A DNA stretch of 64,000 nt, from assembly GCA_964533295.1 (NCBI GenBank), contig CAZHLM010000001.1:112498-176497 (forward strand). The letters are read 5' to 3'. The notes below the pieces were generated by a model. That model was not told the origin of the DNA. It made no database searches and was given only the letters and a program-made list of their open reading frames with translations. Both the position numbers and the translations under genes were made by a program. This DNA comes from an uncultured Verrucomicrobiota bacterium. Lineage in GTDB: Bacteria; Verrucomicrobiota; Verrucomicrobiia; Palsa-1439. Shown in pieces: positions 2,449-64,000 of this stretch; positions within the stretch are counted from its first letter, which is position 1, and the number at the start of each line of letters is the position of its first letter.

Positions 2449-3030
2449 CTAATGGTGAGCGCTCCGGCTCGGCTGCCCGGAGGTCTGAGCCTCTCCGGCC
2501 TCTCCTGACCCATTTCCTTCCACCAGCACCTCCAGGGCGCCGGCTTCCGCCAGCTTTTCCTGAACTTCGGGACGAGGGTCTTCGTCCACCGACGTGCGCA
2601 GCTCTTGCAGGTGCGCCGGCCGGGGCGCCTGCAGCAAATGCAACAGGGCTCCCAGTAGCCAACCCAATGTGCCCAATACCCCGGCACCGAGGCAGGCTGT
2701 GGCGACCGGCCCGGCGCTCAACGCCGGTGCGAGACCTGCGATCGTAAGGCGATTGGCATAGACGAGCGCCCCCAACAGGGCACCGATCAAGGCGCCAATC
2801 AACAGCCCGATCCAGGCTGGCACGCCGATCTCAACCGTGGAAATCCCTTCATGGGCCTGATGAAATTCTTCGCGCACGCGCTCGGCGTCCACCGCGCTCA
2901 CGTCAACGGAGGCGGCCGACGGGGCAATGCGGCGCTCGGCTTCGCGCGCCTGCGATTCGGTGGGAAAGTGGGCGACGATGTGGCGAGCCGAAGCGCCGTC
3001 GCCATGTTGGCCCTTGTGATCATGCTCCAT
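2449..3030 (-). CDS. glycine-zipper membrane protein (DUF1269-like), hypothetical
   Basis: GLLIGALIGALLGAL and GAGVLGTLGWLLGALL glycine-zipper TM helices; acidic, low-complexity C-terminus. Confidence 0.35.
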   Translation of the reverse strand: MEHDHKGQHGDGASARHIVAHFPTESQAREAERRIAPSAASVDVSAVDAERVREEFHQAHEGISTVEIGVPAWIGLLIGALIGALLGALVYANRLTIAGLAPALSAGPVATACLGAGVLGTLGWLLGALLHLLQAPRPAHLQELRTSVDEDPRPEVQEKLAEAGALEVLVEGNGSGEAGEAQTSGQPSRSAHH

Positions 3031-4316: not shown

Positions 4317-6158
4317 CTACATCGTCCCCGGCTGTTTGCCGCGCCGCACCAGCCAAGCGTCGATGGGCAAGGCCACTAGCCAGCCCACCAAAACGGAGAT
4401 GAGGGTCGTGCCCCACCACATGATCTCATCGTCTTCCGGCATGCCTTCCATCATCAATTCGGCCATCTGAATCCACCACATGAAACCCATCATGCCGATG
4501 GCCATGGCCGTCATCGACAGAAAGGCAGGCGGGAAGGCGCGCCGCACGGCCTGCCCATACGGAAGCTGATCGTGTTCCATGAACATGTGCGCGTGCATCA
4601 CCAGCCAGTGGAGCGCGAGCGCGCCGAAGTAAGCGATAAAGATGCCGACCATCATCGAGTTGCCCAGCCAAAAGCCGGGCCCGCGCAAGACGAGTAGGGG
4701 GAGACCCAAGGCAGTGACGATCCAGGAAATGACCAGCATGAGCGGACCATCGAAGCCCCGGTTCATGGCGGAGGCGGCCAGCGCTGCGCCAAACCCTTCA
4801 CGGTGCCACATCGTCATCTGGCCATGTTTCATCCAATGCACACGGTGGTAACTCTGGCGATAGAGCCAGACCGCCAGCGGCCCCAGCACCAGCCCGAGCA
4901 GCGTCCAGGTCGCGCGCATCACGGGGCCAATCTGCGGCAGACGGCGCAGGCTGTGCAGCAAAATCCAAAGCCCGCAGGCCAGGCCGGCAAGAATCCAGAC
5001 GATCCACAACACTTCCATGCCGGACAACCCCCCTTCTTCAAAGCGGTAGGCGCCGATCTCCTGTGAGAGATCGGCCTGGCCTTGGACACGGAGGCCGATC
5101 TGGTCCGGACCGCCCAATATCCACAGATGGTTGAACGGCCCTTCGGCAGGCGTGTTGAAGAACTCCGGCTTCATCTTCCATAGATACTGATCGGTGACCG
5201 GCGGGATGCGGTCGCGCTCCACCCACAACAGCGGACCAAACTTGCCAAAGCGGGCGAGCGCGATTCCGGCGAGCGCGATCATTGGATCGTCACGATTGGC
5301 AAGCACGAAGTTGTGAGTGGCGATGTAGTGGCTGCCGCCTGAGCCCCAACCGACGCCCGCCGCCTCATCGCGGTATTCGGCCAACGCGACTGCTGCTGCC
5401 AGGCCATTCCAGGCCACAATTCGCTGGAGGCTCCCATATTGGCTCAGGTCCTCTGGTTCGGGCACTGGCCCCACCAGATAGATATGGGCTTGCCCACCGC
5501 GCCGTTCCAGGGCCTGGCGAGTCGCCGCCGGCAGCGGGTCGCCGCCGAAGAGGATCACGTCACCGGACTGGGCGGCCCAGTAAGCGGCCGGGATGGCGTA
5601 AAGCGGATCCTCGGGCACGAGCAGGATATTCGCCTGGGGGCCGCCTGCCAGGCGCTCCACGAGCAGGTCCACACCAAGGGCCACGTCCGCCGCATCTCCG
5701 GCTGGCACTTGTACGCCGAGAGTTTGATCCGGTGGGTTGTGCCCGACCCAAACCACGCTGCCGCCCTCCAGAGTCTGGACTCCAGCAGGTTCTAACCGTG
5801 GAATCTCTATTTCCACCCCGGCACCTTCTTCCACCAGCACCAGTGGGCCGTCGAGCCAACGCACAAGCGGAGCGGCGGCTACCCCCGCCTGCCACCCGTC
5901 GGCGGGTGCGACGATCACAGCCCGGGGCCTCTTCTCGCTGCCCTCTGGAAACAGCGCCTCCGAAACGGCCCGGCTCAGCGCAGTCGGGTTGCTCTCAGCC
6001 AGCCGGGTGCTGTCCTTTGTGTTTAGGGTAAGGAGGCCCTCAGGGGGTGAAGCATCTGCCCCACTCCACGTCAACCACAAAATGTAGATGGGCACGAGCA
6101 GAACAGCCGACCCGAGCAGTCCGGCGATGATCAGGACGACCTTACGCATGAAACTCAT
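4317..6158 (-). CDS. fusion of CWB2-like repeats with a C-terminal polytopic Met/His/Trp-rich membrane domain
   Basis: N-terminal TM anchor, repeats resembling 3034-4266, C-terminal segment HWLVMHAHMFMEHDQ ... MMGFMWWIQMAELMMEGM spanning several TM helices. Confidence 0.45.
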   Translation of the reverse strand: MSFMRKVVLIIAGLLGSAVLLVPIYILWLTWSGADASPPEGLLTLNTKDSTRLAESNPTALSRAVSEALFPEGSEKRPRAVIVAPADGWQAGVAAAPLVRWLDGPLVLVEEGAGVEIEIPRLEPAGVQTLEGGSVVWVGHNPPDQTLGVQVPAGDAADVALGVDLLVERLAGGPQANILLVPEDPLYAIPAAYWAAQSGDVILFGGDPLPAATRQALERRGGQAHIYLVGPVPEPEDLSQYGSLQRIVAWNGLAAAVALAEYRDEAAGVGWGSGGSHYIATHNFVLANRDDPMIALAGIALARFGKFGPLLWVERDRIPPVTDQYLWKMKPEFFNTPAEGPFNHLWILGGPDQIGLRVQGQADLSQEIGAYRFEEGGLSGMEVLWIVWILAGLACGLWILLHSLRRLPQIGPVMRATWTLLGLVLGPLAVWLYRQSYHRVHWMKHGQMTMWHREGFGAALAASAMNRGFDGPLMLVISWIVTALGLPLLVLRGPGFWLGNSMMVGIFIAYFGALALHWLVMHAHMFMEHDQLPYGQAVRRAFPPAFLSMTAMAIGMMGFMWWIQMAELMMEGMPEDDEIMWWGTTLISVLVGWLVALPIDAWLVRRGKQPGTM

Positions 6159-6210: not shown

Positions 6211-6573
6211 TTACGTCAACATCGCGGCCATCTGCCGGCAAGATTGAGCGCAGCGGCGGCAGGCCTCCGCACAGTTCTGCATCACCCTGTCGTCGGTGAA
6301 GCGCTCACAGTCTCTTGCACAGTGCTCGCACACATCGGCGCAGACGGCGCAGAGGCGAGGATGAAGGTCAGAACCGCGCAGCATGAAGTTTGCGCTGGTC
6401 TGACAAACCTCGGCACAGTCAAGCAATAACCGAATGTGCATGGCTTCTGCATGGCTGCCGCCCATGTCCAGACAGTGTGTGACGGTTTCAAGACAGATGC
6501 CGTGGCAGGTCAGGCACTCCTGAATGCATTTTTTCATCTCCGGACTCATCGCGTGACTCGGGGTGTGGGGCAT
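6211..6573 (-). CDS. four-helix-bundle cysteine-rich copper storage protein (Csp/DUF326 family)
   Basis: 120 aa with about 17 Cys in CxxxC spacing (CIQECLTCHGICLETVTHCL ...); GGAGG ribosome-binding site. Confidence 0.7.
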   Translation of the reverse strand: MPHTPSHAMSPEMKKCIQECLTCHGICLETVTHCLDMGGSHAEAMHIRLLLDCAEVCQTSANFMLRGSDLHPRLCAVCADVCEHCARDCERFTDDRVMQNCAEACRRCAQSCRQMAAMLT

Positions 6574-6989
6574 CGGAGGTCTCCGTGTGGCCGATGGTCA
6601 GTCGCTTGAACGAGGTGGTAAGTCTCCAAAGCGAATACGATGCTCAGAAAAGCAGCACAAATCTTACATAGGATAAGTTTTCTGAGGAGGCTATCGCTGT
6701 CGGTCCAGCGCCGATTTTGGTGTCGGATTTGGGTTGGTGGGTGTGTCGGCTTTGATCGGATCAAGCCAGACGTCGAGGCCAGCCAGGTTCGAGGAATTTA
6801 GTTATGGCGACCTCAGTTTGGGCGATCCAAAGGCACGCTGGGTGGTGGATAAGCCCCAGAACCTGTTCACACGCTCTTGGCGCCATAGGCTATTTGGCGC
6901 GCGGTCACACCCGCCACATAGCGCTGGTTCGCCATCGAGCTTTTCTATAGACTGCATCACAGGAAAGGACATTCGGAAGGTTGCGTGAA

Positions 6990-7150: not shown

Positions 7151-9793
7151 ATGGCTGCACAAATCAAATCTCTCAGCCTGCCTGTTCAGGGCATGTCATG
7201 CGCTTCGTGCGTTTCACATGTGGAGGGCGCGCTCAAGGAACTGCCCGGCGTTGAAAGCGTGGTCGTCAACCTGGGCACCAACAAGGCTGCGCTCAATTTT
7301 GATCCGACCCGGGTCACCCTGACCGACCTGGCCCGCGCGGTCGACGAGGTGGGATATCGGGTGCCGACCTCTGAACTGGCGCTAGACGTGCGCGGCATGA
7401 CCTGCGCCTCGTGCGTGGCCCATGTCGAAGGGGCGCTGAAGGGGGTCGAAGGGGTCACCGGGGCAGTCGTGAACCTGGGTCTGGGCACGGCCCGCGTCAC
7501 CTACATCCCCGGCCTGGTCTCGATCAACGCCATGAAGCGGGCCGTGCGCGAGGTCGGCTACGAAGCCCAGGAGCGAAGCGAAGGCGTCGACGCGCTCGAC
7601 CGCGAGCGGCAGGCGCGCGAGGCCGAGATCCGGCGCCAGGGCCGCAACCTGCTCATCGCCGGGCTGGTTGGCCTGGTCGTCATGATCGGCACTTTCTACG
7701 ACATGCTTGGCCCCCTTAAGGTGTTGGTGCCGGCGTGGCTGGCCCAGAAGTGGGTCATCGGCCTGCTGACCACGCCCATCGTCTTCGGCCCCGGTCTGCA
7801 GTTCTTCGTCAACTCTTGGCGAGGGCTTAGGCACGGCGTGACCGACATGAACCTGCTGTACGCCACCGGCATTGGCGCCGCCTACGGCATCGCCGTCATC
7901 AACACCCTCTTCCCGGAGGCCGGCTTCGGGGGTGAGGGGGCCACCTTCTTCGAGAGCGCCGCCCTGCTGACGGCCTTCATCATCCTCGGCCGCTGGCTGG
8001 AGGCCCTCACCCGCGGGCGCACGTCCGAGGCCATCCGCAAGCTCATGAAGCTTCAGCCCAAGATCGCGCGCGTCGTCCGGGATGGAAAAGAACTGGAGAT
8101 CCCGGCGGAGGAGGTCGAGATCCACGACTTGATCCTGGTCCGCCCGGGCGAAGGCATCCCCGTGGACGGCCAGGTCGTCGACGGCTATTCCGCCGTCGAT
8201 GAGTCGATGCTGACCGGCGAGAGCCTGCCGGTGGAGAAGAAGGCCGGCGACCTCGTCATCGGCGGGACGCTCAATAAGACCGGCGCATTCCGCTTCTCGG
8301 CGACCCGCGTGGGCAAAGAGACGGCCCTGGCCCAGATCATCAAGCTGGTGGAGGACGCCCAGGCCAGCAAGGCGCCGATCCAGAAGCTGGCGGACTGGGT
8401 GGCCGGGCACTTCATCCTGGGCGTTCACGTGCTGGCGGTGCTGGTCTTCGTCTTCTGGTTCTTCTACGGCTTTGGGCGCTTCTTCGACCCGAATTCCAGC
8501 TTCATCCTCTCACCCTACAAGCTGGGCGAGATCGGCGTGTTCGGGTTCTCGCTCCTGCTGTCGGTGACGGTGCTGGTGATCTCCTGCCCGTGCGCCGTCG
8601 GCCTGGCCACCCCGAGCGCGATCATGGCTGGCGCCGGCAAGGCCGCCGAGCACGGCGTGCTCTTCAAGGGCGCCGAGGCCATCGAGAACGCCAGCAAGCT
8701 GCAGGTGATCGTCTTTGACAAGACCGGGACCCTCACCCAGGGCCAGCCGAGCGTGACGGATGTCGTGGTCAGTGATCAGTGGGCAGGGGTCAGTAACTCT
8801 GATCACTCTCCACTACCCACTGACCACCTGCTCCGCTACGCGGCCAGCGCCGAGAAGCACAGCGAGCATCCGCTGGGCGAGGCCATCCTCAAAGGAGCGG
8901 AGGCACGCGGCCTGACGCTGCCCACGCCCGAACAGTTCATTTCGATCCCCGGGCATGGCGTCGAGGCCCGAATTGAAGGCCGCGCCGTTCTGCTGGGCAA
9001 CCGCAAGCTGATGCGCGAGCGCGGCGTGGACTTCGGCGCGTTGCTGACGAGGGCGGAGGCACTGGAGGCCGATGGCAAGACGGCCATGTTCCTGGCCGTG
9101 GACGGCGCGCCGGCCGGCCTGATCGCCGTGGCCGACACGCTCAAGGAGTACTCGGCCGAGGCGGTTGCGCACCTGCACCGGCTGGGCATCCAGGTGGCCA
9201 TGATCACGGGTGACAACGCCCGCACCGCGCAGGCGATCGCCCGGCAGGTGGGCATCGACCGGGTGCTGGCGGAAGTCCTGCCCCAGGACAAGGCCGAAGA
9301 AGTCAAGAAGCTCCAAGCCGCCCCCGCTGGAAAGCGCGGGGCAGGCGGCCACAAGGTGGCCATGGTCGGGGATGGCGTCAACGATGCGCCGGCCCTGGCC
9401 CAGGCCGATGTCGGCCTGGCCATCGGCTCCGGGACCGACGTGGCCAAGGAAACCGGCGACGTCATCCTGATCAAGGACGACATCCGCGACGTGGTCGTGG
9501 CCCTGGAAGTGGCCCAGGCCACCATGCGCAAGGTCAAGCAGAACCTGTTCTGGGCCTTCGTCTACAACCTGCTGGGCATCCCGCTGGGGGCCGGGCTGTT
9601 CTACCCCTTCGTGTCGCTGATCATCAGCCCGGAGCTGGCCGGCCTGATGATGGCCGTCAGCTCGGTCTCGGTCACCCTGAACACGTTACTCCTCAAGCGC
9701 TTCCGGCCATCCATCCGCCGCGACGATGCGCCCTGGCCAGGCCCCCGCCAGGCACACCCAGGCCTGGCGCCGGCGCCAGCCAGCGGCGACTGA
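7151..9793 (+). CDS. copA: copper-translocating P1B-type ATPase with two N-terminal HMA domains
   Basis: two GMSCASC/GMTCASC HMA motifs, CPC TM motif ([11 protein letters not shown]), [21 protein letters not shown], MxxSS; AAGGA ribosome-binding site before the ATG at 7151. Confidence 0.9.
8765..8827. repeat. palindromic mini-element (terminal inverted repeats GTGGTCAGTG / CACTGACCAC) inserted in frame within copA1
   Basis: sequence gtggtcagtgatcagtggg ... cccactgaccac adds about 10 aa ([19 protein letters not shown]) between DKTGT and SEHP compared with the copA3 paralog. Confidence 0.6.
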
Positions 9794-9830: not shown

Positions 9831-10955
9831 ATGAAACGCGTTGTAATCTTTTCCTTCATTGCGGTCCTGGCGATCCTGATATCCGCCTGCAGCGGCCCCG
9901 CCGTGGTGGCGCCGGCAACCCAGGCCGCGCCAGTCGCGCCCACCATGGATCCCAACATGCCTGGCATGGACATGGGAGAGGGGCAGACGTCCACATTGGA
10001 GCCAAATTTGGACGAGATGCCGGGTGCCGGCATGGACGTCATGACCATGGAGGCCCCCATCCCCAGCCTGGGCGTACCGCCGGCGACCGAGACGGAGGGC
10101 GGCCAACCGCTGGCGTACACGCTGGACGGCGACGTGAAAGTCTTCCAGCTGACGGCCCAGCCGGTGCGCTGGAACATCCTCCGGGACGTCGTGGTGACCG
10201 CCTGGACTTACAACGGCACCGTGCCCGGGCCCATGATCCGGGTCAGCGAGGGCGACCAAGTCCGCGTCATCGTGAAGAATGAATTGCCGGAGGCGACCAG
10301 CATCCACTGGCACGGCCTGCCGGTGCCCAACGCCATGGACGGCGTGCCGCCGTTCACGCAGCCGGCCATTGAACCGGGCGAGACCTTTACGTATGAGTTC
10401 ACGGCGGCGCCGGCCGGCACGTTCATGTACCACTCCCACGTGGCCACGGACAAGCAAATCCCGGTGGGCCTGTACGCGCCGCTGGTGATCGAGCCCAAGG
10501 ACCCGCCCACGGACCCGCCCGCCGTCGACGAAGTTCTGATGCTGGGGGAATGGACGATTGGCCCGGACGGCGAGACCTATCCTTCCATGCCGATGGCCGG
10601 GGCCGAGCCGAACTACTTCACCGTCAACGGCAAGGCCTTCCCCGAGACCAAGCCGGTCACGGTCAGAGTGGGTGACGTGGTCCGTCTGCGCCTGGCCGCC
10701 ATTGGCCAGTTCACGCACCCCATGCACCTGCACGGCCAGTTCTTCAAGATCGTGGCGACGGATGGCAACCCGGTGCCCGAGGCCGCGCAGCTGACGAAGG
10801 ACACCGTCGCCGTCAATCCGGGCGAGCGCTACGACATCGAGTTCACGGCCACGAGCCCGGGGACGTGGGTCCTGCACTGCCACGTCCTGCATCACGTCAC
10901 CAACAACGACGTCGAGCCGGGCGGGCTGATTTACGTGATCAACGTCCAGCCTTAA
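9831..10955 (+). CDS. multicopper oxidase with Met-rich N-terminal region
   Basis: lipoprotein-like signal; HWHG, YHSH, HPMHLHG and HCHVLHH copper-ligand motifs; MDPNMPGMDMGEG / MPGAGMDVMTMEA Met-rich stretch; AAGGAG ribosome-binding site. Confidence 0.85.
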   Translation: MKRVVIFSFIAVLAILISACSGPAVVAPATQAAPVAPTMDPNMPGMDMGEGQTSTLEPNLDEMPGAGMDVMTMEAPIPSLGVPPATETEGGQPLAYTLDGDVKVFQLTAQPVRWNILRDVVVTAWTYNGTVPGPMIRVSEGDQVRVIVKNELPEATSIHWHGLPVPNAMDGVPPFTQPAIEPGETFTYEFTAAPAGTFMYHSHVATDKQIPVGLYAPLVIEPKDPPTDPPAVDEVLMLGEWTIGPDGETYPSMPMAGAEPNYFTVNGKAFPETKPVTVRVGDVVRLRLAAIGQFTHPMHLHGQFFKIVATDGNPVPEAAQLTKDTVAVNPGERYDIEFTATSPGTWVLHCHVLHHVTNNDVEPGGLIYVINVQP

Positions 10956-14619: not shown

Positions 14620-14691
14620 GAGCGGTCACGGGCCACGAGTACGGTCTTCACCCTCCGCGATCAGCCATCAGCCATTCGCGATCAACCAGCC

Positions 14692-16095
14692 ATGCGTCTC
14701 TTCGCCAAGCTCTTGCTCTCTTTCCTGGCCGTTGTCCTGGTAGGCGTGGCCGTGGTGTCGCTGCTGGCCAACCAGGCGGCGGCCAGCGAGGTGCACAGCT
14801 TCATGTTCCAGGGCGGCATGACGAGCGACGCCGGCCTGGCGCAGGAGTTGGCAGGCTACTATCGTGGTCGTGGCTCCTGGGAGGGCGTCCAGACACTGGT
14901 GAGCGCCGGTCTGGGGATGGGCGGCATGGCGGGGATGATGGGCCAGCAGCTCCTCGTCGCCGATGCGCGCGGCCAGGTCGTGGCCGACTCCGCCGGCCAG
15001 CGCGTAGGCCAGACCCTGAGCCAGGCCGAACTGTCAGGCGGCACCGCCATCGTCGTCGACGGCCAGCGCGCCGGCACGCTCGTCGCCGTGGGCGGCATGG
15101 GGATGGGCGAGATCAGGGGTGGCCCGGGGCAGGCTGACAGCGCCACGAACGATCTGTTAGGGCGCGTCAACCGGGCCATCTGGCTGGCGGCACTGGCGGC
15201 GGGCGGCGCTGCTCTCGTGGTCGGCGGCATTTTGGCCTATGGCCTCGTTCGACCGATCCGGCGCCTCATGGCTGCGACGGCCGTCATCGCCCGCGGCGAC
15301 CTGGCCCAGCGTGTCCCGGTCACGTCTCAAGATGAAATCGGCGACCTGGCGGCCGCGTTCAACGCGATGGCGGCCGACCTGCAGAAGGCTGAGCGCCTGC
15401 GGCAGGACATGATCGCGGATATTGCCCATGAGCTGCGCAACCCCCTGGCGGCCCTGCAAGGCAGCCTGGAAGCGGTGGTCGACGGGGTGCTGCCGCCCAC
15501 CCAAGAGACCCTGGCGCCGCTGCTCGATCAGACGCAATTGCTCGCGCGGCTGGTGAGCGACCTGCGCACGCTGGCCCTTGCCGACGCCGGGCAACTGCCT
15601 CTGGATCGCCTCTCCATGAACCCCGCGGATCTGGTCCGGTCGGTGGTCGCCCAATTCACGCCCCAGGCTCAAGCCAAGCACCTCACCCTGCGCGCCGATA
15701 TTCCTGTCAGCCTGCCGACCCTCTCGCTCGATCCCCAACGCATCGCCCAGGTCCTCGGCAACCTGCTCGGCAATGCCATTCGTCACACGCCCGCAGGGGG
15801 AGTGATCAGTGTTCAGGGTTCAGTATCCAGTGAGCGCCCGGAAATCACTCTGAACACTGGGCACTATTTACGGATCACTGTTACTGACACCGGCTCCGGT
15901 ATCCCGCCTGAGGCTGTGCCGCATGTCTTCGACCGCTTCTATCGCGTCGACCGCGGGCGCTCGCGCAGCGAAGGCGGGACCGGCCTCGGCCTGGCCATCG
16001 CCAAACAACTGGTGCAGGCGCACGGCGGGCACATCTGGGTGACCAGCCAGCCCGGCCAGGGCACGCAAGTTTCGTTTACCCTGCCTCTCAACTGA
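14692..16095 (+). CDS. sensor histidine kinase (periplasmic Met/Gly-rich sensor, HAMP, HisKA, HATPase)
   Basis: IADIAHELRNPLAAL H-box, DTGSGIP and GGTGLGLAI G-boxes; sensor loop with GMGGMAGMMGQQ. Confidence 0.85.
   Translation: MRLFAKLLLSFLAVVLVGVAVVSLLANQAAASEVHSFMFQGGMTSDAGLAQELAGYYRGRGSWEGVQTLVSAGLGMGGMAGMMGQQLLVADARGQVVADSAGQRVGQTLSQAELSGGTAIVVDGQRAGTLVAVGGMGMGEIRGGPGQADSATNDLLGRVNRAIWLAALAAGGAALVVGGILAYGLVRPIRRLMAATAVIARGDLAQRVPVTSQDEIGDLAAAFNAMAADLQKAERLRQDMIADIAHELRNPLAALQGSLEAVVDGVLPPTQETLAPLLDQTQLLARLVSDLRTLALADAGQLPLDRLSMNPADLVRSVVAQFTPQAQAKHLTLRADIPVSLPTLSLDPQRIAQVLGNLLGNAIRHTPAGGVISVQGSVSSERPEITLNTGHYLRITVTDTGSGIPPEAVPHVFDRFYRVDRGRSRSEGGTGLGLAIAKQLVQAHGGHIWVTSQPGQGTQVSFTLPLN
15802..15890. 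repeat. palindromic mini-element of the CAGTGA/TCACTG family inserted in frame within the kinase ATP-binding domain
   Basis: gtgatcagtgttcagggttcag ... actctgaacactg ... cactgttactgacac; stem cagtgttcagggt pairs with actctgaacactg; encodes ISVQGSVSSERPEITLNTGHYLRITVTD. Confidence 0.55.
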
Positions 16096-16243: not shown

Positions 16244-18925
<2,682 letters not shown>

Positions 18926-18975
18926 TCATGGGTAATTGGTGATTGGTGATGGTTGATTGAAGACCGCAATCAACC
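18926..18975. repeat. tandem heptamer (TGATTGG) tract plus hairpin GGTTGATTG-aagaccg-CAATCAACC immediately after the copA2 stop
   Basis: read directly; a related ATCAGCC/ATCAACC tract at 14650-14691 precedes the kinase start. Confidence 0.4.
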
Positions 18976-18995
18976 ATCAGCCATGGAGAGATGCT

Positions 18996-19380: not shown

Positions 19381-20262
19381 ATGGCAGTGGTGTCGCCGAG
19401 TCGCCTCACCTTCAGGCGGCCACCGATAATGGGCCCGGCCGGTCCGCCTCCAGCGCTCCACGTCTGCGAGGCCGGCCCGCCGGGCCGCACCCTGGTGTTC
19501 CTCCCCGGCCTGGGCGGGACGACCCGCTACTGGCAGGGGCGTCTTGGCGTGCTTGAGCAGAAGTATCATGCCGTCCTGGTGGATCCGTTGGGCTTCGGCG
19601 AGTCGCCCAAGCCCTGGACACGTTACACCGTCGAGCGGCACGTTCAGGCACTGCACCAGGCCCTCAGCCGGATGGCGCCTTTCACACTGGTGGGCCACTC
19701 GATGGGAGCCTTGCTGGCAGTCGCCTACGCCGCCCGTCATCCCGCCGACGTGGAGGGCCTGGTGCTGTTGGGGTTGCCGAATTTCGGGAGCCCGGAGAAG
19801 GCCTTCCGCTTCTTCCGCAAAGGCTCCTGGGTCAATCGCGTGTTTCTCTCGAACATGGTGCTGGCCGCGGTCATCTGCGTCTTGACCCGGCGCGTCTTCG
19901 CCTGGCTGGTGCCGTACTTGCAGCCCGAACTGCCGCGCGAGGTCGCAGCCGACGTCGTCCGGCACTCCTGGCGGTCGTTCACGTCATCGCTGTGGGAGGT
20001 CGTGTACAACTGTGACACCGCCCGAGACGCGGACAGGCTCGACCGCCGCCTGCCCGTCGTCTGCCTGCACGGCGATCGCGACATCACAGCCCCGCTGGAG
20101 GGGCTTCTGGCCCTGGTGCAGGGCCGCCCCAACTGGCGCGTGCGGGTCCTGCCCGGCGTGGACCACCATCCGCTGCTGCACGCCCCCGCTGAATGCTACC
20201 GGGCGATTGAGGCAGTGACACGGCGGGAGGAGCTGGGACCACAAGAAGCAGAGCTGGTTTGA
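19381..20262 (+). CDS. alpha/beta-hydrolase fold protein
   Basis: GHSMGALLA nucleophile elbow (GxSxG); HGDRD and DHHPLLH consistent with a catalytic triad. Confidence 0.7.
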   Translation: MAVVSPSRLTFRRPPIMGPAGPPPALHVCEAGPPGRTLVFLPGLGGTTRYWQGRLGVLEQKYHAVLVDPLGFGESPKPWTRYTVERHVQALHQALSRMAPFTLVGHSMGALLAVAYAARHPADVEGLVLLGLPNFGSPEKAFRFFRKGSWVNRVFLSNMVLAAVICVLTRRVFAWLVPYLQPELPREVAADVVRHSWRSFTSSLWEVVYNCDTARDADRLDRRLPVVCLHGDRDITAPLEGLLALVQGRPNWRVRVLPGVDHHPLLHAPAECYRAIEAVTRREELGPQEAELV

Positions 20263-33750: not shown

Positions 33751-35302
33751 GGTGTAAATGGATTGAGTGCAACCTGAAGGTGCCAGAGTTTAGTCAGTGG
33801 TCGTGAGCTCGCTCCTGAAAGTCAGAAACGACATCATGTGAAGCGCCGCGCCCACAGCCGGCGAGCGCGCCCGCAGGCCGGGCCCCGGTCAAGGTGGAGC
33901 GAGCGCGCGAGCTGGGCCGCCCCCTGGGGCGGCGCGCGCTCGACGACCTTGACCGGGTGGCCGGAGGGTGCCGCCTCGCGCGGCGGGCGCCGGCGCGAAC
34001 CGGTCAGCGCACAGGCGCCAAGGCCGGAGCAATCATGAGCGCGCCCGCGTGCGGGTCCAAAAGCCGCTGCATGCTCGCTTGGCTGAAGTAGCGGCGCTCA
34101 ATGGCCCACTCGTCCGCCAGTTCCAACAGGACCATGCCGGTGAGACGCAGCACGGCCGGGTCATTCGGAAAGACCTGCACCACGTCCGTGCGGCGCTTGA
34201 TCTCCCGATTGACGCGTTCTAAGACGTTGGTGGAATAGAGCCGGGTCCAGTGTTCGGGCGGGAACGTCAGATAGGCCAGTACATCGTCTTCGGCCGTCCG
34301 TAACAGCGCGGCGGCTTTGGGCCAGCGCGTCTGCATCCCGCGCGCCACTTCGGCCAGCTGTTGACCAGCCGCCTCCCGATTGGGCTGGGCAAAAATCGTG
34401 CGGACCAGGGCCGCCACGACGGCCTTATCGGCGTGCGGGATATGGGCCAGCAGATTGCGCATAAAGTGCACGCGACAGCGCTGCCAGGTGGCCCCGGTCA
34501 AGACCTGAGCAATGGCCGCTTTCAGGCCTTCGTGGGCGTCACTAATGACTAACTGAACGCCGGCCAGACCTCGACCGACGAGACTACGCAAAAACTCGCT
34601 CCAGAAGGCTTGTTCTTCGCTCGCTCCCAACGCCAGGCCCAACACCTCGCGTTCGCCGGTCTCTCGCACACCGACCGCCACCACCAGGGCTTTACTGACA
34701 ATCCGCTGATTGGCACGTACTTTCACGTAGACCGCATCTAGCCACATATAGGGATAGGCCCCGCTCAAAGGTCGTTGCCGAAAGGCCGTCACTTGCTCAT
34801 CGAGCCCCTGGCACAGGCGCGACACCTTGGACTTGTCGATCCCACTCAGGCCGAGGGCTTGCACCAGATCGTCCACTTTGCGGGTGCTCACCCCGGCCAC
34901 ATACGCTTCTTGAATGACGGCCACCAGGGCCTGCTCCGTCCGCCGACGCGGCTCCAGCAAGCTTGGAAAGTAACTCCCCTGGCGGAGTTTGGGGATCCGT
35001 AACTGGAGTTCCCCCACGCGCGTTTCCAACGGCCGTTCGCGATAGCCGTTGCGCTGGGTGGTGCGCGCCGGGCTGCGCTCGTACTTCCCCGCCCCAATCT
35101 GCTGTTCGGCTTCCAATTCGATCAACTGCTGCAGTAGCCACTCCAACGCCGGCCGCAGGGCCTCCCCATCCAACGTCAGGCCCATCTTGCGTAGGTGCTC
35201 ATTCAGTGCGATAGTCAATTCGGTCATCGGGTGCTCCTGTTGCGATGTGGTAGTCACTTCAGGTAGCACTCGATGACTCGTTTTGTCAAATCCGATTTAC
35301 AC
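33751..35302. mobile_element. IS256-family insertion sequence
   Basis: transposase gene flanked by imperfect inverted repeats GGTGTAAATGGATTGAGTGCAACCTGAAG (left) and revcomp GGTGTAAATCGGATT ... GAGTGCTACCTGAAG (right); no clear target-site duplication. Confidence 0.65.
34004..35227 (-). CDS. IS256-family (Mutator-type) transposase
   Basis: 407 aa with the DDE region of IS256 transposases (YMWLDAVYVKVR ... LVISDAHEGLKAAI ... RCRVHFMRN). Confidence 0.85.
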   Translation of the reverse strand: MTELTIALNEHLRKMGLTLDGEALRPALEWLLQQLIELEAEQQIGAGKYERSPARTTQRNGYRERPLETRVGELQLRIPKLRQGSYFPSLLEPRRRTEQALVAVIQEAYVAGVSTRKVDDLVQALGLSGIDKSKVSRLCQGLDEQVTAFRQRPLSGAYPYMWLDAVYVKVRANQRIVSKALVVAVGVRETGEREVLGLALGASEEQAFWSEFLRSLVGRGLAGVQLVISDAHEGLKAAIAQVLTGATWQRCRVHFMRNLLAHIPHADKAVVAALVRTIFAQPNREAAGQQLAEVARGMQTRWPKAAALLRTAEDDVLAYLTFPPEHWTRLYSTNVLERVNREIKRRTDVVQVFPNDPAVLRLTGMVLLELADEWAIERRYFSQASMQRLLDPHAGALMIAPALAPVR

Positions 35303-36182: not shown

Positions 36183-38708
36183 ATGAAGACGACAGTCATC
36201 TTTCTGGAAGGCATTGAGTCCGTGCTTTCGCCGGCCGGGGTCGAGAAGCAGTTGTGCCGGCATCCCGGCATCCACAAGGTTGAAACGAACTTCATGACGG
36301 GCACGGCCACCGTCTACCATGACGAGTCGGTGCCGCTGGCGGAGATCAAGCGTTACGTGGCCGAATGTGGCTACGCCTGCTCAGGTGAGTGCCTGCCACA
36401 GCACGTGACCCAGCCGGGCGATCCGCCAATGGAAATGGCGCACGCCGGCCATGCGATGCGCGACGCCGGAGCTGGAGAACACGCCAGGCCTGAGATGCGC
36501 GCACATGTCGGGCACGTGATGCCGGCGTCTGAACATGACGCCCATGCCGGCCACGCCATGCCGACGGCGAAAGCGCCCGCCACAGCCGAGGCCCATGCCG
36601 GGCATGAGACACCGGCACTTGCGCCCGGTGCAAGTGTGGCTGCGGCCGGCGAAATGGAAGCTATGGCTCACGAGATGGGCCACGGCGCGGGAATGAGCAT
36701 GGAGGCCATGGTGCGTGACATGCGCAACCGCTTCCTGGTTGCGTTCGTCCTCGCCATCCCCGTCTTCCTGTACTCGCCGCTGTTTACCGACTTTTTCCAG
36801 GTTCAGCTGCCACTTCCATTCGGGCTATCAAATGAAGCGCTGTCGTTTCTGCTCGCCACACCCGCCGTGCTGTACAGCGGCTGGGTCTTCTATATCGGCG
36901 CATGGCGCGGGCTGAAGAATGGGGTACTGAACATGGCCGTGCTGGTCACGCTCTCGGTATTGGCCGGATACATCTTCAGCGTCGCCGCCACGTTCCTGTT
37001 TGAAGGTGAAGTCTTCTACGAGGCCGCGGTGCTGCTGCTGGCCTTTGTGCTCTTCGGCCACTGGATGGAGATGCGCGCCCGCTCCGGCGCGTCGCAGGCC
37101 ATTCAGGCGTTGATGAACCTCGCGCCGCCGAAGGCCACCGTCATCCGCGGCGGGCAGCAGGTCGAAGTTCCGACTTCGGAAGTGCTGCTGGACGACGTCG
37201 TCCTCATCCGACCCGGCGACAAGATCCCGGTGGACGGCGTAGTCATCGAGGGCGAGTCGAGTGTGGACGAGTCCATGCTGACGGGCGAGAGCCTGCCGGT
37301 GAAGAAGGCTGTCGGCTCCAGCGTCGTTGGCGCGACGATCAATAAGACCGGCGCGTTCAAATTCCGCACCACCAAAGTGGGCGCGGATACTGCCCTGGCG
37401 CAGATCGTCAAGCTGGTGCAGGTGGCGCAGAACTCGAAAGCACCCTCGCAGCGGCTGGCGGACCGGGCTGCGCAATGGCTGGTAGCCGCCGCCATCGTCT
37501 TCGGACTGGCGACGTTTTTCGGCTGGTATTTCTTTGGCGGGTCGGCCATCCCGCCGGGAGTGGACAGGACGGTGTGGGCCCTGACGCTCGCCATCACGGT
37601 CGTCGTCATCGCCTGCCCTGATGCGCTCGGGTTGGCCACGCCCACGGCGGTGATGGTGGGCACCGGCCTCGGCGCGCAGAACGGCATCCTGTACAAGAAT
37701 GCCACCGCGCTGGAAGAGGCAGCCAAGTTGCAGGCCATCATCTTCGACAAGACCGGCACGCTCACCGAGGGCAAACCCCAGGTGGTTGAAATCGTGGCAT
37801 CGGGCAACCCGCTCACCGAGGCCGACCTGTTGCGGCTGGTCGCCTCGGCGGAGCAATCATCCGAACACCCGCTGGCCCAGGCCATCGTGGAAAAAGCCAA
37901 GGCGCAAAACGTGAAGCTGGAAGACGCGGGTGGCTTTGAGGCCATCCCCGGCCACGGCATGAAGGCGGTAGTCGCTGGCCGGACTCTGCTGGTAGGCAAC
38001 CGCAAGCTGATGCGTGACAACCAGATCGCACTCAATGAACTGGGAGAGCGCGCCGCCTCCCTGGAAGGCGCGGGGCGCACGGTGGTATATGCCGCTGCGG
38101 ATGGCCAATTCGTCGGGCTCATCGCCATCGCCGACGCGGTGCGGCCCAACGCCCGGCTCGCCGTCGAGAAGCTGACCAGCATGGGCGTACAGGTTGCCAT
38201 GCTCACCGGCGACAATCGTGCCACCGCTGAACGTATCGCGGGCGAGCTCGGTATCCAGACCGTGTTCGCCGAAGTGCTGCCGGGCCAGAAAGCTGACAAG
38301 GTGAAGGAGCTGCAATCGCAGGGGAAGCTGGTGGCGATGGTGGGCGATGGCATCAACGACGCCCCGGCGCTGGCGCAGGCCGACGTGGGCATCGCCATCG
38401 GCGCGGGCACCGACGTGGCGATGGAGACCGCCGACGTGGTGCTGATGAAGTCCGATCCGTTCGACGTGATTGGTGCCATCACGCTCAGCCGGGCGACGTT
38501 GAGCAAGATGCACCAGAATCTGTGGTGGGCAGCGGGTTACAATACCATTGCCTTCCCCATTGCCGCCGGCTTGTTCTACCCGGCCTTCGGGCTGATCCTG
38601 CGCCCCGAAATTGCCGCCATCTCGATGTCGGGTTCGTCTCTGCTGGTAGCGGTCAATGCCTTGATGCTAAAGAACACGAAGCTGGAAGGCATCCGGGCCA
38701 AAGCATAA
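36183..38708 (+). CDS. P1B-type heavy-metal ATPase with cysteine-free HMA-like N-domain, His/Met-rich stretch and CPD TM motif
   Basis: [10 protein letters not shown] ... [20 protein letters not shown] ... [25 protein letters not shown] instead of [26 protein letters not shown] and MSGSS. Confidence 0.85.
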
Positions 38709-50805: not shown

Positions 50806-51200
50806 TGTGCGCCCGTCACAAGGACGCCACATTAGCGTTCAATGAGCTACACCTTGTACGCGCCAAATGGCGCTTGTGTGCCGGCAGGAGTTGCAGTACC
50901 GTGAAAGTGTAGCCATTGCAGCCTCGACGATGCCCTTCCCTTTACGCGGAACCATCGACAACATTCACGCGGCATAGGTCTGGCGGCGTGGGTGGAGTGG
51001 CTGCCTAAGCCGGACCGAAGGCCAGGGCGAGCCGAACTTTCGCCGCTACCCTACCCTGGTAGGGTCTCTCCCAAAAAACGGCTTCACTGTAGAGCATCGT
51101 CGGCGACGTCAGGGCCTCGACCGGACGGGCCCGAACGCAGTTTGTGTTCGGGCCCGTCCATTATTACCAGTGACAGTGGTCAGAAGACGAGGCGTTCAGG

Positions 51201-62017: not shown

Positions 62018-62018
62018 A

Positions 62019-62108
62019 GTGGTCAGTGGACAGCGAGCAGTGATCAGTGCGCAGTGATCAGTGGGTAGTCTCGAAGGGATGCTTCGCAGTGAGCAGAGTT
62101 TGATCACT
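62019..62108. repeat. 90-bp palindromic element (terminal inverted repeats GTGGTCAGTG / CACTGACCAC) at the ABC ATPase/permease junction
   Basis: arms cagtgatcagtgggtagtc and gactacccactgaccactg are reverse complements; encodes the last 17 aa of the ATPase and abuts the permease start. Confidence 0.6.
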
Positions 62109-64000
62109 GTCGACTACCCACTGACCACTGTTCCGGCTTTCTTCCATTTCGATGAAGACCACAAACAAGTCTTCGAGCGAGAACGGGATGGGCGCGACGC
62201 GGTGCGCGGCATGGCCCTCGGCGGCAAAGGCGGCTTGAATTTCGGGCACCAGGCGGGCCGCATCCTCGACGAGGACGTGAACCCGGTCGCCAAACAGCCC
62301 GGCGCTGAGCACACCGTCCATCTTCTGCATGGCCCGTAGGGCGCGGACGGGTTCAGGGCAGGCCACTTCGAGCATTTCACCCGCGCGCATATTCTCGCGC
62401 AGGCTCGCCGGGCTGCCGGTGGCGATCAGGCGCCCGGAGTAGATCAGCCCGAGCGTCCCGCAGTGCTCGGCCTCGTCCATGTAATGCGTCGTCACGAACA
62501 CCGTTACCCCACGCCCGGCCAGTTCGTAAATCAGGTCCCAGAAGGCGCGGCGCGAGAGCGGGTCAACGCCTGAAGTCGGCTCGTCCAGGAATAAGATACG
62601 TGGCTCATGCAGGATGGCGCAGCCCAGGGCCAGGCGCTGCTTCCACCCGCCGGAGAGGGCGCGCGTCATGGCCCGTTCGCGGCCCACCAGCCCGGCCATC
62701 TCCAGCGCCCAGCGTTTGCGTGAGGCCAGCCGGCTGCCGGGCACGCCGTACACACCGCCGTAAAAGTCCAGGTTCTCTTCGACCGTCAGGTCGTTGTAGA
62801 GCGAGAACTTCTGTGACATGTAGCCGATGTCGGGCTTGATCTGTGTCTGCTCGCGCACGATATCGCGCCCGGCCACCGTGCCGCTTCCGGCGGTGGGCGG
62901 CAGCAGGCCGCACAACATACGGAGGGTCGTCGTCTTGCCGCTGCCGTTCGGGCCGAGGAAGCCGTAGACCTCACCTGCGCGCACGTCCAGGGAGAGGCGA
63001 TCCACTGCCGTGAAGTCGCCGAATTTTCTGGTGAGGCTGGAGAGGCGTATGGCGTAATCCGCATCACGCGTCACAGGTTTCGCCTGCTTATTATTCGCCG
63101 CGAGTGCAATGCCACCCGCAGTGGGGGCCGCCCGGCGGCCATCCGCCGCGCGCGACTCCAGTGTCGCCACGAACACGTCTTCGAGGCTGGGCGTTGCGCG
63201 GCGCACATCGGAGAGGCGGATACCAGCGGCGCTCATCTCAGTTTGCAGCACGGGCAGAGCGCCCTCCGGCTGTTCCATCAGCAAATGCACACGCTCGCCA
63301 AAGACCTGCACGTGCGAGACATTTGGGAGAGCGCGGAGCCGGCTCACGGCTGCACGCTGCGGCAGGGCCAGCAGGTCGAACATATCGCCCTTCAAACTCG
63401 CCCTGAGGGCCGCGGGTGTGTCGCAGGCGACGATCTCGCCCTGGTGCATCAGCGCCACCCGATGGAAGCGTTCAGCCTCGTCCATGTACGGCGTCGTCAC
63501 CAAAATGGTGATCCCTTGCGCCAGGAAGTCGTTGAGCAGCAGCCAGAAGTCGCGGCGGCTGACCGGGTCCACGCCGGTGGTCGGCTCGTCAAGGAACAAG
63601 ACCTGCGGTGAATAGACGAGCGCGCAGGCCAGGGCCAGTTTCTTCTTCATGCCGCCGGAGAGGTGCTCGGCCCGGCGGTCGGCGATGCGTTCAAGCCGGG
63701 CGAAGCGGAGCAGATCGGTGATACGGCGTTCGCGCTCTTCGGGTGGTAGGTGGTAGAGGTCGGCAAAGAAGTCCAGGTTTTCACGGATGCTGAGCGAGCC
63801 GTACAGCGTGAAGCCTTCGGACATGTAGCCGATCTTCCCGCCCAGGGCCGACGGGCTGGCGGCCACGTCCACCCCGGCCACGGTCGCTCGCCCGGCGCTG
63901 GGGCGCAGCAGGCCGCACAGCATTTGCAGCGTCGTGGTCTTGCCGGCGCCGTCCGGCCCAACCAGGCCGAAGATTTCGCCCCGGCGCACGTCCAGGTCGA
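62058..64000 (-). CDS. fused tandem-ABC ATP-binding protein (YbhF-like), 5' end beyond window
   Basis: two Walker A (GPDGAGKTT, GPNGSGKTT), two LSGG signatures and two Walker B; ORF still open at position 64000. Confidence 0.85.
   Translation of the reverse strand, partial: DLDVRRGEIFGLVGPDGAGKTTTLQMLCGLLRPSAGRATVAGVDVAASPSALGGKIGYMSEGFTLYGSLSIRENLDFFADLYHLPPEERERRITDLLRFARLERIADRRAEHLSGGMKKKLALACALVYSPQVLFLDEPTTGVDPVSRRDFWLLLNDFLAQGITILVTTPYMDEAERFHRVALMHQGEIVACDTPAALRASLKGDMFDLLALPQRAAVSRLRALPNVSHVQVFGERVHLLMEQPEGALPVLQTEMSAAGIRLSDVRRATPSLEDVFVATLESRAADGRRAAPTAGGIALAANNKQAKPVTRDADYAIRLSSLTRKFGDFTAVDRLSLDVRAGEVYGFLGPNGSGKTTTLRMLCGLLPPTAGSGTVAGRDIVREQTQIKPDIGYMSQKFSLYNDLTVEENLDFYGGVYGVPGSRLASRKRWALEMAGLVGRERAMTRALSGGWKQRLALGCAILHEPRILFLDEPTSGVDPLSRRAFWDLIYELAGRGVTVFVTTHYMDEAEHCGTLGLIYSGRLIATGSPASLRENMRAGEMLEVACPEPVRALRAMQKMDGVLSAGLFGDRVHVLVEDAARLVPEIQAAFAAEGHAAHRVAPIPFSLEDLFVVFIEMEESRNSGQWVVDSDQTLLTAKHPFETTH

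Follow-up and report, generated by a model that had tools for sequence, protein, structure and literature searches.

Heptamer-repeat hairpins in frame in a variable loop of copper-transporting CopA ATPases

The 64,000-nucleotide stretch considered here (hereafter, the window), positions 112,498 to 176,497 of contig CAZHLM010000001.1, has a G+C content of about 64% and contains a metal-homeostasis island with three paralogs of the copper-transporting ATPase CopA. Two of these, CopA1 and CopA2, located 9 kb apart in the one island, each contain in frame a short DNA segment that folds into a hairpin with arms made up of 7-nt units (heptamers). An earlier examination of this DNA from its letters only (hereafter, the sequence-only reading) had taken these segments for palindromic mini-elements inserted at the same position in both paralogs. 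Here, we report a computational analysis of these hairpins, their hosts, and their relatives in genomic, metagenomic and viral sequences, with an emphasis on a point missing from that reading, namely, that the CopA loop in which the hairpins reside is a recurrent hot spot for many heptamer families.

Heptamer hairpins in a loop of CopA

The genes compared and the two hairpins are as follows.

7151 to 9793, plus strand: CopA1 host gene, 880 aa, Cu+ P1B-ATPase with two HMA domains
8765 to 8827, plus strand: heptamer hairpin in CopA1, in frame, encoding a 21-residue peptide
16271 to 18925, plus strand: CopA2 host gene, 884 aa as called, with YHS and HMA domains
17999 to 18058, plus strand: heptamer hairpin in CopA2, in frame, 60 nt, encoding a 20-residue peptide
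36183 to 38708, plus strand: CopA3, the insert-free comparator, with 42 aa between DKTGT and SEHP

Both host open reading frames (ORFs) are intact (905 codons for CopA1 and 909 for CopA2), and a domain search identified HMA, E1-E2_ATPase and Hydrolase domains in them. The hairpins lie between the DKTGT and SEHP motifs, as previously stated, and the linker is indeed longer by about 10 aa, the DKTGT..SEHP stretch comprising 52 aa in CopA1 and CopA2 vs 42 aa in CopA3. The presence of in-frame segments in the first two paralogs and their absence from the third was borne out by folding the loop DNA as RNA: CopA1 reaches -41.3 kcal/mol (z = -6.6) and CopA2 -28.5 kcal/mol (z = -4.1), well beyond shuffled sequences, vs z = +1.5 for CopA3. 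The DNA fold z-scores are -3.9 for CopA1 and -3.3 for CopA2.

The arms consist of tandem 7-nt units, AGTGRYC on the left and the complement GRYCACT on the right. In CopA1, the left-arm units are GGTCAGT, GATCAGT, GGGCAGG and GGTCAGT, followed by the loop and by GATCACT, CTCCACT, ACCCACT and GACCAC in the right arm. The sequence-only reading was correct in seeing a palindromic repeat and mistaken as to its unit, which it gave as CAGTGA/TCACTG; the terminal inverted repeats it described are merely the outermost heptamers. Its coordinates for the CopA1 segment stand, whereas those for CopA2 (17995-18056) have been moved to 17999-18058 by comparison with an empty site.

Structural mapping places the CopA1 insert in a loop predicted to be disordered. 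The AlphaFold model of CopA1 has a mean predicted local distance difference test (pLDDT) score of 65.6, with a poor membrane part and values of 80-89 in the phosphorylation (P) and nucleotide-binding (N) domains. Within it, the insert forms a coil between a strand (529-540) and a helix (556-567), with pLDDT below 50 at 548-554 and 83-89 in the flanking regions. In alignments with the A. fulgidus CopA structures, the insert falls in a gap, CopA1 being longer by 12 residues between VTDLVP and ELLRLAA. As judged from the model, the site would be a permissive surface loop that joins the first strand of the N domain to its first helix and tolerates almost any length (36-87 aa for the whole DKTGT..SEHP stretch). 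The second low-confidence loop of the model (728-731) is an extra 12-residue peptide before KVAMVGDG, to which we return below.

The history of the insert is clearest in CopA2. A native 41-aa stretch with the conserved loop VLAPGQNEADVLR is present in 106 of the 120 nearest CopA2 relatives (76-89% identical); the remaining 14 differ in length, and most of these have inserts, from at least six repeat families. In a tree computed with the loop masked, the window CopA2 (P0193) is sister to a group in which P0195, with an empty site, joins the pair of P0194 (another repeat family) and P0196 (empty). A CAGT cassette of equal length and nearly the same sequence is found in P0197, although this protein groups in another clade with empty-site and other-family relatives. 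Because native loops prevail so widely and the masked-loop tree sets the window protein beside empty-site relatives, the CopA2 insert is derived rather than ancestral; by the same evidence, the view of it as ancestral ATPase sequence was discarded, in agreement with the earlier statement that the peptides are not typical of the ATPase.

Alignment of filled and empty CopA2 sites (window, L208, L210 and L011) revealed how the cassette is seated. The empty site in L208 (P0195, 89% aa identity) reads ACGGACGTAGTG, CTGGCCCCGGGTCAGGATGAGATCGAG and GTCCTCCGT in succession, and the window has 60 nt between the corresponding flanks, so that 27 native nucleotides (CTGGCCCCGGGTCAGGATGAGATCGAG) were lost and 60 nt gained, with no target-site duplication. 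The flanks of the window cassette are of the CopA2 type up to both junctions. In a second filled/empty pair, L209 (45 nt, GATTGCT family) and the empty L210, the native sequence is likewise replaced. The reading of in-frame palindromic repeats at the identical loop of two paralogs holds, but in CopA2 the repeat replaces native bases and is not purely added. The G-Q codons of the native loop, GGTCAG, match 6 of the 7 bases of the unit and are a possible microhomology seed.

A survey of 80 orthologous genome loci and 240 proteins showed that the occupancy of this loop is not confined to a single repeat. The DKTGT..SEHP stretch measures 39-68 aa across the 80 loci, and the extra DNA consists of hairpin-forming or tandem heptamers with various units, as follows.

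CAGT type: L013, L064, L010, L011
GATTTTG/CAAAATC: L015 (z = -11.7)
GGAAGTT/AACGTCC: L059, L054
GATTGCT/AATCAGC: L066
other units: L053, L061, L071, L072
GGGAGAGGG-type palindrome, in Bipolaricaulota: L075, L080, L081

The stretch spans 36-87 aa in the 120 nearest relatives of CopA1, nearly all of which have heptamer-derived peptides; length variation in CopA1 is by far the highest at this loop (standard deviation 6.2 aa vs at most 2.6 elsewhere). The families mostly track clades, yet are patchy, and the neighbors of the window CopA1 have unrelated loops. By a rough count that is inflated by vertical inheritance, arrays occupy the ~30-nt loop site in about 24 of 84 copA genes, vs about 13 arrays elsewhere in the 1.27 Mb of loci. 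The same 1.27 Mb contain 35 runs of period 7, vs 9 of period 6 and 6 of period 8. Taken together, these sequence comparisons show that the CopA loop is a recurrent hot spot that was independently occupied by at least six heptamer families; the CopA2 lineage probably gained an insert on about nine or more separate occasions. In the CopA1 lineage, loop occupancy is near-universal: almost every relative has some heptamer-derived loop, with a patchy distribution of families. The sequence-only reading would have abandoned insertion if orthologs from distant taxa shared the peptide. Some CopA1 orthologs do carry near-identical peptides, but the patchy distribution, together with conservation at the nucleotide level (see below), argues for repeated acquisition or maintenance and against ancestry.

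Other hairpins in the window and beyond

Four further elements of the window belong with the CopA hairpins.

15797 to 15890, plus strand: heptamer hairpin, in frame, in the HATPase_c domain of a histidine kinase (ORF 14692-16095); DNA z = -2.9
18928 to 18990, no strand assigned: intergenic heptamer hairpin of another unit family, GGTGATT / CAATCAAC; DNA z = -4.9
62018 to 62135, no strand assigned: largest CAGT-family hairpin, at an ABC ATPase/permease junction, with 6.6 AGTGATC units and an inverted arm; DNA z = -5.7
9316 to 9352, plus strand: second palindrome in CopA1, in frame, non-heptameric, G+C-rich GCCGCCCCCGCTGGAAAGCGCGGGGCAGGCGGC; DNA z = -3.3

The sequence-only reading had already noted the histidine-kinase copy and the one at the ABC junction, and both were recovered here. 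The former occupies a turn between GGVISV and LRITVTDTG, adds 10 aa relative to VicK (4I5S), and has period 7 with 4.6 copies according to Tandem Repeats Finder (TRF); at this site, the native strand codons GTGATCAGTG and ATCACTGTTACTGAC themselves resemble heptamer units. The latter, between two minus-strand genes, contributes the final ~25 codons of the ABC ATPase ORF together with its stop, and adjoins the permease ATG at 62017. These two copies start with GGAG and ATAG, respectively, so that there is no conserved GTAG/CGTC tag. The 18928-18990 hairpin fills the spacer from the copA2 stop (18925) to the ribosome-binding site (RBS) and ATG (18996) of the cupredoxin gene. The 9316-9352 palindrome encodes the extra 12-residue peptide before KVAMVGDG (+9 aa vs A. 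fulgidus CopA) and represents the same phenomenon with a different type of repeat; hence CopA1 contains two in-frame hairpins of different kinds. In a CopA1 ortholog (L066, 1736-1806), a heptamer hairpin (GACGACA / CGTCGTC) is located in this second variable loop, before MVGDGVNDA.

The window is enriched in such structures. It contains 7 long imperfect hairpins vs 1-3 in Markov simulations, and 5 of the 7 show 7-nt periodicity; TRF detects period-7 arrays at 15801, 18008, 18931 and 62018. The motif GTGRTCAGTG, with at most one mismatch, occurs 19 times vs an expectation of 7.6 +/- 2.4, a count that none of 100 shuffles reached, and all 9 exact matches are within four elements.

Several other repeats were observed in the window. 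Direct heptamers at 14660-14694 (GATCAGCC, ATCAGCC, ATTCGCG, ATCAACC, AGCC-ATG) lead into the start codon of the histidine kinase and look like the right arm of the hairpin at 18965-18986. No 7-nt periodicity is seen in two other hairpins, one between ORFs (51119-51163; near-perfect, GGACGGGCCCGAAC...GTTCGGGCCCGTCC) and one, G+C-rich, within an alpha/beta-hydrolase ORF (19431-19487).

Outside the window, a metagenome scan with the pattern CAGTGRTCAGTG N25-55 CACTGAYCAC matched at least 120 loci from soil, peat and sediment, with G+C of 0.41-0.69. The CAGT hairpin family is not lineage-specific: it is found in these metagenomes, including the two contigs with genes looked up, which are those of Terracidiphilus (Acidobacteriota), and in 25 stretches of IMG/VR viral contigs. 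Among the matches listed, most metagenome copies are intergenic and have the form (GGTCAGT)n-loop-(ACTGACC)n, with a median length of 75 nt (range 49-285 nt); by crude ORF calls, at least 37 lie in same-direction spacers, at least 30 in convergent ones, at least 2 in divergent ones, and at least 6 inside ORFs of 300 aa or more. Distances to ORF ends are unreliable because ORFs necessarily end at TGA codons inside the elements. Intragenic copies include four in frame in one 1082-aa methylase-like ORF (L102, 2923-6168), three in frame in an 818-aa helicase-like ORF, among them a long LTTDHGQ array (L152, 5450-7903), and one in frame just before LFGIVQGG in an ORF that resembles tRNA-guanine transglycosylase, so named from sequence motifs (L198). 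At L089, a CAGT hairpin (293-356) lies between two tRNAs (205-278 and 363-435) in the spacer of an rRNA operon, the 23S rRNA of which starts at 1028. A search of Rfam gave no match at gathering thresholds, only sub-threshold matches to microRNA-like hairpins.

Gene boundaries stand out in two settings. On a 10-kb IMG/VR contig (L213), a CAGT heptamer hairpin is present in almost every spacer between same-strand ORFs (349-414, 838-930, 1310-1391, 2910-3006, 4843-4908, 5821-5888 and 6327-6448), with ends 2-6 nt ahead of the next start codon; several, four of the seven listed, finish 2-5 nt ahead of it, so close that there is little room for a separate Shine-Dalgarno sequence. In the copA2-cupredoxin spacer, a heptamer hairpin abuts the RBS in the window and in L209, L210 and L211, with the units GGTGATT (18928-18990), GCAGAAG (6678-6755), AGCGTGG (5934-5991) and AACTTCA (10458-10537), respectively. 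In this spacer, as in the CopA loop, the position, periodicity and pairing persist, and the unit sequence differs. Such regularity may reflect re-colonization of identical sites by genome-specific families, or in-place turnover by slippage homogenization and arm-to-arm correction, possibly of a selected hairpin. In two metagenome-assembled genomes (MAGs) of Chloroflexota, heptamer hairpins lie directly upstream of the copA RBS and start (L054, 4576-4686; L057, 10001-10057).

The remainder of the island comprises a multicopper oxidase, LGT, a response regulator with the histidine kinase, the cupredoxin and a YHS-cyclase, along with ZIP, Nramp, antiporter subunits and an HlyD/ABC exporter. A gene for an IS256/Mutator-family transposase (34004-35269, minus strand; Pfam E = 3e-129) is located just upstream of CopA3, which suggests a separate arrival of CopA3. 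The best CopA1 orthologs come from Anaerolineales MAGs (75-81% identical), on which ground the host was assigned to the Anaerolineae, and the exact CopA1 protein is encoded on 7 contigs from three assembly sources: contig Ga0073932_1000889 of JGI 3300007072 and six contigs from ENA/Logan.

Origin and maintenance of the hairpins

Conservation was measured on an alignment of eight homologous CAGT copA cassettes. In these, 85% of cells are paired vs 17-49% with the partners slid, and at four stem pairs both partners have changed; 3 of 500 shuffles attained this number. Column identity is 0.82 in stems and 0.50 in bulges and loops, and the three codon positions are conserved alike (0.75, 0.80 and 0.76). 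Copy-to-copy identity is 0.58-0.94 vs 0.33-0.61 at the fourfold synonymous sites of the flanking 1.2 kb of copA, sites that we read as near saturation; between the window CopA2 and L013, the flanks have 0.60 protein identity and the cassette is 0.88 identical. Similarity between copies follows the stems rather than the codons, so that the cassette changes in a manner unlike the drift of a neutral coding insert. It may be copied anew from a conserved pool, subject to correction of one arm by the other, or selected as a structure. Within 21 nt, a perfect array of the canonical unit gives TGA in every frame; two would-be TGA codons have given way in all eight copA copies, one to TCA, TTA or TGG and the other to TGG, TGT, CGT, TCT or CGG, and the replacing codons coincide with bulges of the hairpin.

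The interpretation that we favor, and consider reasonably probable, is that the segments are heptamer hairpins akin to repetitive extragenic palindromic (REP) and short tandemly repeated repetitive (STRR) sequences that survive in a permissive loop of the CopA N domain. The usual seat of such hairpins, like that of REP, would be short intergenic spacers, right after stops and right before starts. An occasional copy would enter an ORF and persist only where 10-25 added residues are harmless and the in-frame TGA is lost. In CopA, the hairpin overwrote the short surface loop between the first strand and the first helix of the N domain; rather than by cut-and-paste transposition, it most plausibly arrived from another array through template switching or through copying or recombination mediated by microhomology. 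Its palindromy would be upheld by arm-to-arm templated correction, selection on the stem, or both, and the peptide itself would have no role in copper transport.

Several points weigh against this interpretation. No donor copy, enzyme or intermediate was found, so that the mechanism of arrival is one that we infer. Arrays are far denser at the ~30-nt loop than in the DNA around it, so tolerance alone may be insufficient, and targeting or selection of the hairpin may account for the excess. The near-identical cassettes of P0193 and P0197, equal in length and register and in separate clades, fit the transfer of a ready-made cassette better. Furthermore, the trees are simple neighbor-joining distance trees with no support values, arrays that derive from one unit consensus are partly similar by construction, and of the context classification, with its crude ORF calls, only the asymmetry between convergent and divergent spacers was used.

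The transfer that these two proteins bring to mind is one in which a ready-made cassette of ~60 nt spreads from one copA to its orthologs or to the neighboring paralog by short-patch homologous recombination. Acting across the conserved flanks DKTGT...VTDV and LLRLAA...SEHP, such an exchange would explain the site, the register, the length and the loss of the native loop. We regard both the spread and this mode of exchange as rather unlikely, although the proximity of CopA1 and CopA2 in one island and the replacement, rather than interruption, of the native loop count in their favor. So does the fact that the window CopA2 cassette is 0.85-0.88 identical to the CopA1-type cassettes of L013 and L204, with protein identity of just 0.60 in the flanks. 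Moreover, seven of the eight copA CAGT cassettes yield an 81-nt loop stretch (78 nt in L204) with a hairpin loop of 3-5 nt, whereas family members elsewhere vary in length (49-285 nt) and have hairpin loops of 20-30 nt among the matches listed. Conversely, no conversion tract is seen, the flanks being CopA2-type up to both junctions, and the other unit families at the loop, as well as the hairpins in unrelated proteins, need another source anyway. The two window cassettes are 0.69 identical to each other, vs 0.66 for their flanks, and recent gene conversion from CopA1 to CopA2 in the window was rejected on this ground.

Movement by a trans-acting enzyme is a different matter. The hairpins could be true mobile mini-elements, of the type of Rickettsia palindromic elements (RPE), REP or miniature inverted-repeat transposable elements (MITE), propagated, for example, by a REP-associated tyrosine transposase (RAYT) or an IS200-like single-strand transposase. 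The many dispersed copies in several phyla and on viral contigs would fit such a scheme, as would the REP-like bias toward same-direction and convergent spacers (at least 37 and at least 30, with at least 2 divergent) and the copy between two tRNAs in an rRNA operon spacer, and intragenic REPs are known, an example being recB, in which two Xanthomonas species have different REPs at the same site (PMC3733652). The elements nevertheless have no fixed length or ends (49-285 nt among the matches listed, with a varying number of units), native bases are lost at the junction in place of a target-site duplication, and no gene for a Y1/IS200-type transposase is present in the 64-kb window, where the IS256/Mutator-type one is the only transposase. 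The GTAG found beside many copA copies was considered as a REP/RAYT tag and rejected: it corresponds to native D-V-V codons, since the empty site of L208 already reads GTAGTG. That many unrelated units behave alike is, moreover, hard to fit with a sequence-specific enzyme. Very little probability accordingly attaches, in our assessment, to a mobile element of this kind, or to the notion that the CopA loop is merely one of the few intragenic sites at which such an element is tolerated.

A selected function would require that the hairpin is useful in mRNA or DNA, as a translational pause at the P/N boundary, a site of RNase processing or stabilization, or an attenuator, or else that the peptide is adaptive. 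Conservation and partial compensation of stem columns in the face of saturated flanking synonymous sites point this way, as does the retention of the copA2-cupredoxin spacer hairpin in four relatives with wholly different units. The hairpins that abut start codons on viral contigs are placed like TAACTGA repeats, for which translational control has been proposed (MacGregor 2015, PMC4679880). Nonetheless, the insert is lacking in 106 of 120 CopA2 relatives, in CopA3 and in four CopA1 relatives, no Rfam family matches, and upkeep of the hairpin could be mechanistic, via quasipalindrome correction. The peptides of different families are unrelated, and the model predicts that the loop is disordered. 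A metal-binding role of the His residues in the peptide of the CopA1 loop insert is unlikely because the His residues are replaced by Asn in CopA2 and the peptides of other families are unrelated. All told, we find selection for function highly doubtful as the principal explanation. Phase variation by unit slippage found no support: the units are heterogeneous, the clusters of both proteins at 90% identity contain only 1-2 sequences, and the CopA1 protein is exactly the same on 7 contigs, evidence that is weak given that frameshifted variants would escape a protein-based search.

A more speculative proposal, quite improbable in our view, is that heptamer hairpins are written or renewed at gene boundaries and specific loops by a process that advances in 7-nt steps and is indifferent to unit sequence, whether dedicated or intrinsic to a polymerase, and are kept because they act in mRNA. 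Such action may consist, for instance, in intercistronic control of stability or translation, or, in CopA, in pausing or processing at the boundary of the P and N domains. If this were true, what is conserved would be the position, the period and the pairing, with the unit sequence left free, as observed in the copA2-cupredoxin spacer and in the loop.

Comparison with known repeats and implications

Whichever process generates them, the heptamer hairpins invite comparison with several groups of repeats. RPE, reportedly described by Ogata and colleagues in 2000, are said to be discrete, RPE-1 being about 100-150 bp long. The analogy drawn in the sequence-only reading holds functionally: in both cases, palindromic repeats are dispersed, occur between genes as well as in frame and free of stops within essential or other coding genes, and contribute a short peptide at a permissive place. 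They nevertheless differ in sequence and in host phylum, and the present copies are variable-length 7-nt arrays that replace the native loop, with one site re-used by many families. Judged by build, host and length (not Rickettsia; 49-285 nt among the matches listed), the hairpins do not belong to the RPE family. In-frame palindromic repeats are known outside Rickettsia, in the form of intragenic, GTAG/CGTC-tagged REPs that encode 20-30 aa, among them those of recB mentioned above (Di Nocera 2013, PMC3733652, which also covers RPEs).

REPs share with the heptamer hairpins the short imperfect palindrome, the location mostly between same-direction or convergent genes near ORF ends, and the occasional in-frame copy; the extragenic placement holds here by crude ORF calls, and the window copies at 18928 and 62018 agree with it. 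Unlike REPs, the present elements have no GTAG/CGTC tag, and their arms are heptamer arrays, 50-120 nt vs 20-40 nt for REP; no RAYT (Y1/HUH) gene of the REP/REPIN systems lies within the 64-kb window. MITE identity is contradicted by the lack of target-site duplication and the loss of native bases in two filled/empty pairs.

The 7-nt period links the hairpins to STRR and other long heptamer repeats. STRR sequences are found in heterocystous cyanobacteria, and their units, reportedly given by Mazel in 1990 as CCCCAGT and CAACAGT, are said to have a CAGT core, which the present units share. Head-to-tail 7-nt units are over-represented in the loci analyzed here (35 vs 9 and 6 runs). STRR are, however, simple noncoding arrays, whereas in Chloroflexota and Acidobacteriota the arrays are paired with an inverted complement to form hairpins, some of them in frame in conserved enzymes, and also occur on viral contigs. 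According to Mrazek 2007, as summarized in PMC4679880, heptamers are the most abundant long simple-sequence repeats of prokaryotes. Chloroflexus aurantiacus tops the bacterial part of a satellite table (Subirana 2019, PMC6749651), and some abundant bacterial satellite families in that study derive from heptamers, a statement not made of Chloroflexus specifically.

The closest match in unit sequence is with the TAACTGA direct repeats of Beggiatoaceae, Cyanobacteria and Bacteroidetes (MacGregor 2015, PMC4679880), copies of which lie within a few bases of start codons, with intragenic ones at protein termini or in hypothetical proteins and one inverted example. The units are nearly the same (ACTGATA and ACTGACC here), as are the peptides (LITDN-stop and LSVISYQ there, LTTDN and SVISDQ here). 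Both have stops in all frames of one orientation, placement at start codons, and a spread across phyla with no known vector. The difference is that TAACTGA repeats are exact and direct, in 2-6 copies just upstream of starts, whereas the units AGTGRYC/GRYCACT form inverted arms and also occupy internal loops of conserved enzymes. 

Quasipalindrome-templated mutation, or template switching, known from the work of Ripley and of Lovett, perfects imperfect inverted repeats. It could yield two-sided stem changes with no selection and is a mutational process, not an element family. In a literature search of incomplete, and hence weak, coverage, we found no account of heptamer arrays arranged as hairpins, of a hot spot in the CopA loop or of the literal repeat sequence, and for Chloroflexota and Acidobacteriota only general surveys, with no in-frame heptamer hairpins.

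The CopA loop provides a natural experiment: a single loop of ~9 residues in a well-understood enzyme, with hundreds of orthologs and clear empty sites, has probably been overwritten about nine or more separate times, by different unit families. The origin of heptamer repeats and of their inverted arms, and the reason why 7 nt is preferred in prokaryotes, thereby become testable. In practical terms, such inserts inflate or mislead protein alignments, gene calls (when ORFs are extended through spacers) and domain boundaries in MAGs, and in Cu-ATPases the CopA loop offers a permissive site for insertions that is already mapped. The known range of selfish or structural DNA within genes, so far associated with Rickettsia and a few REP-rich proteobacteria, is widened to heptamer hairpins, a class that spans at least Chloroflexota and Acidobacteriota, as well as IMG/VR viral contigs.

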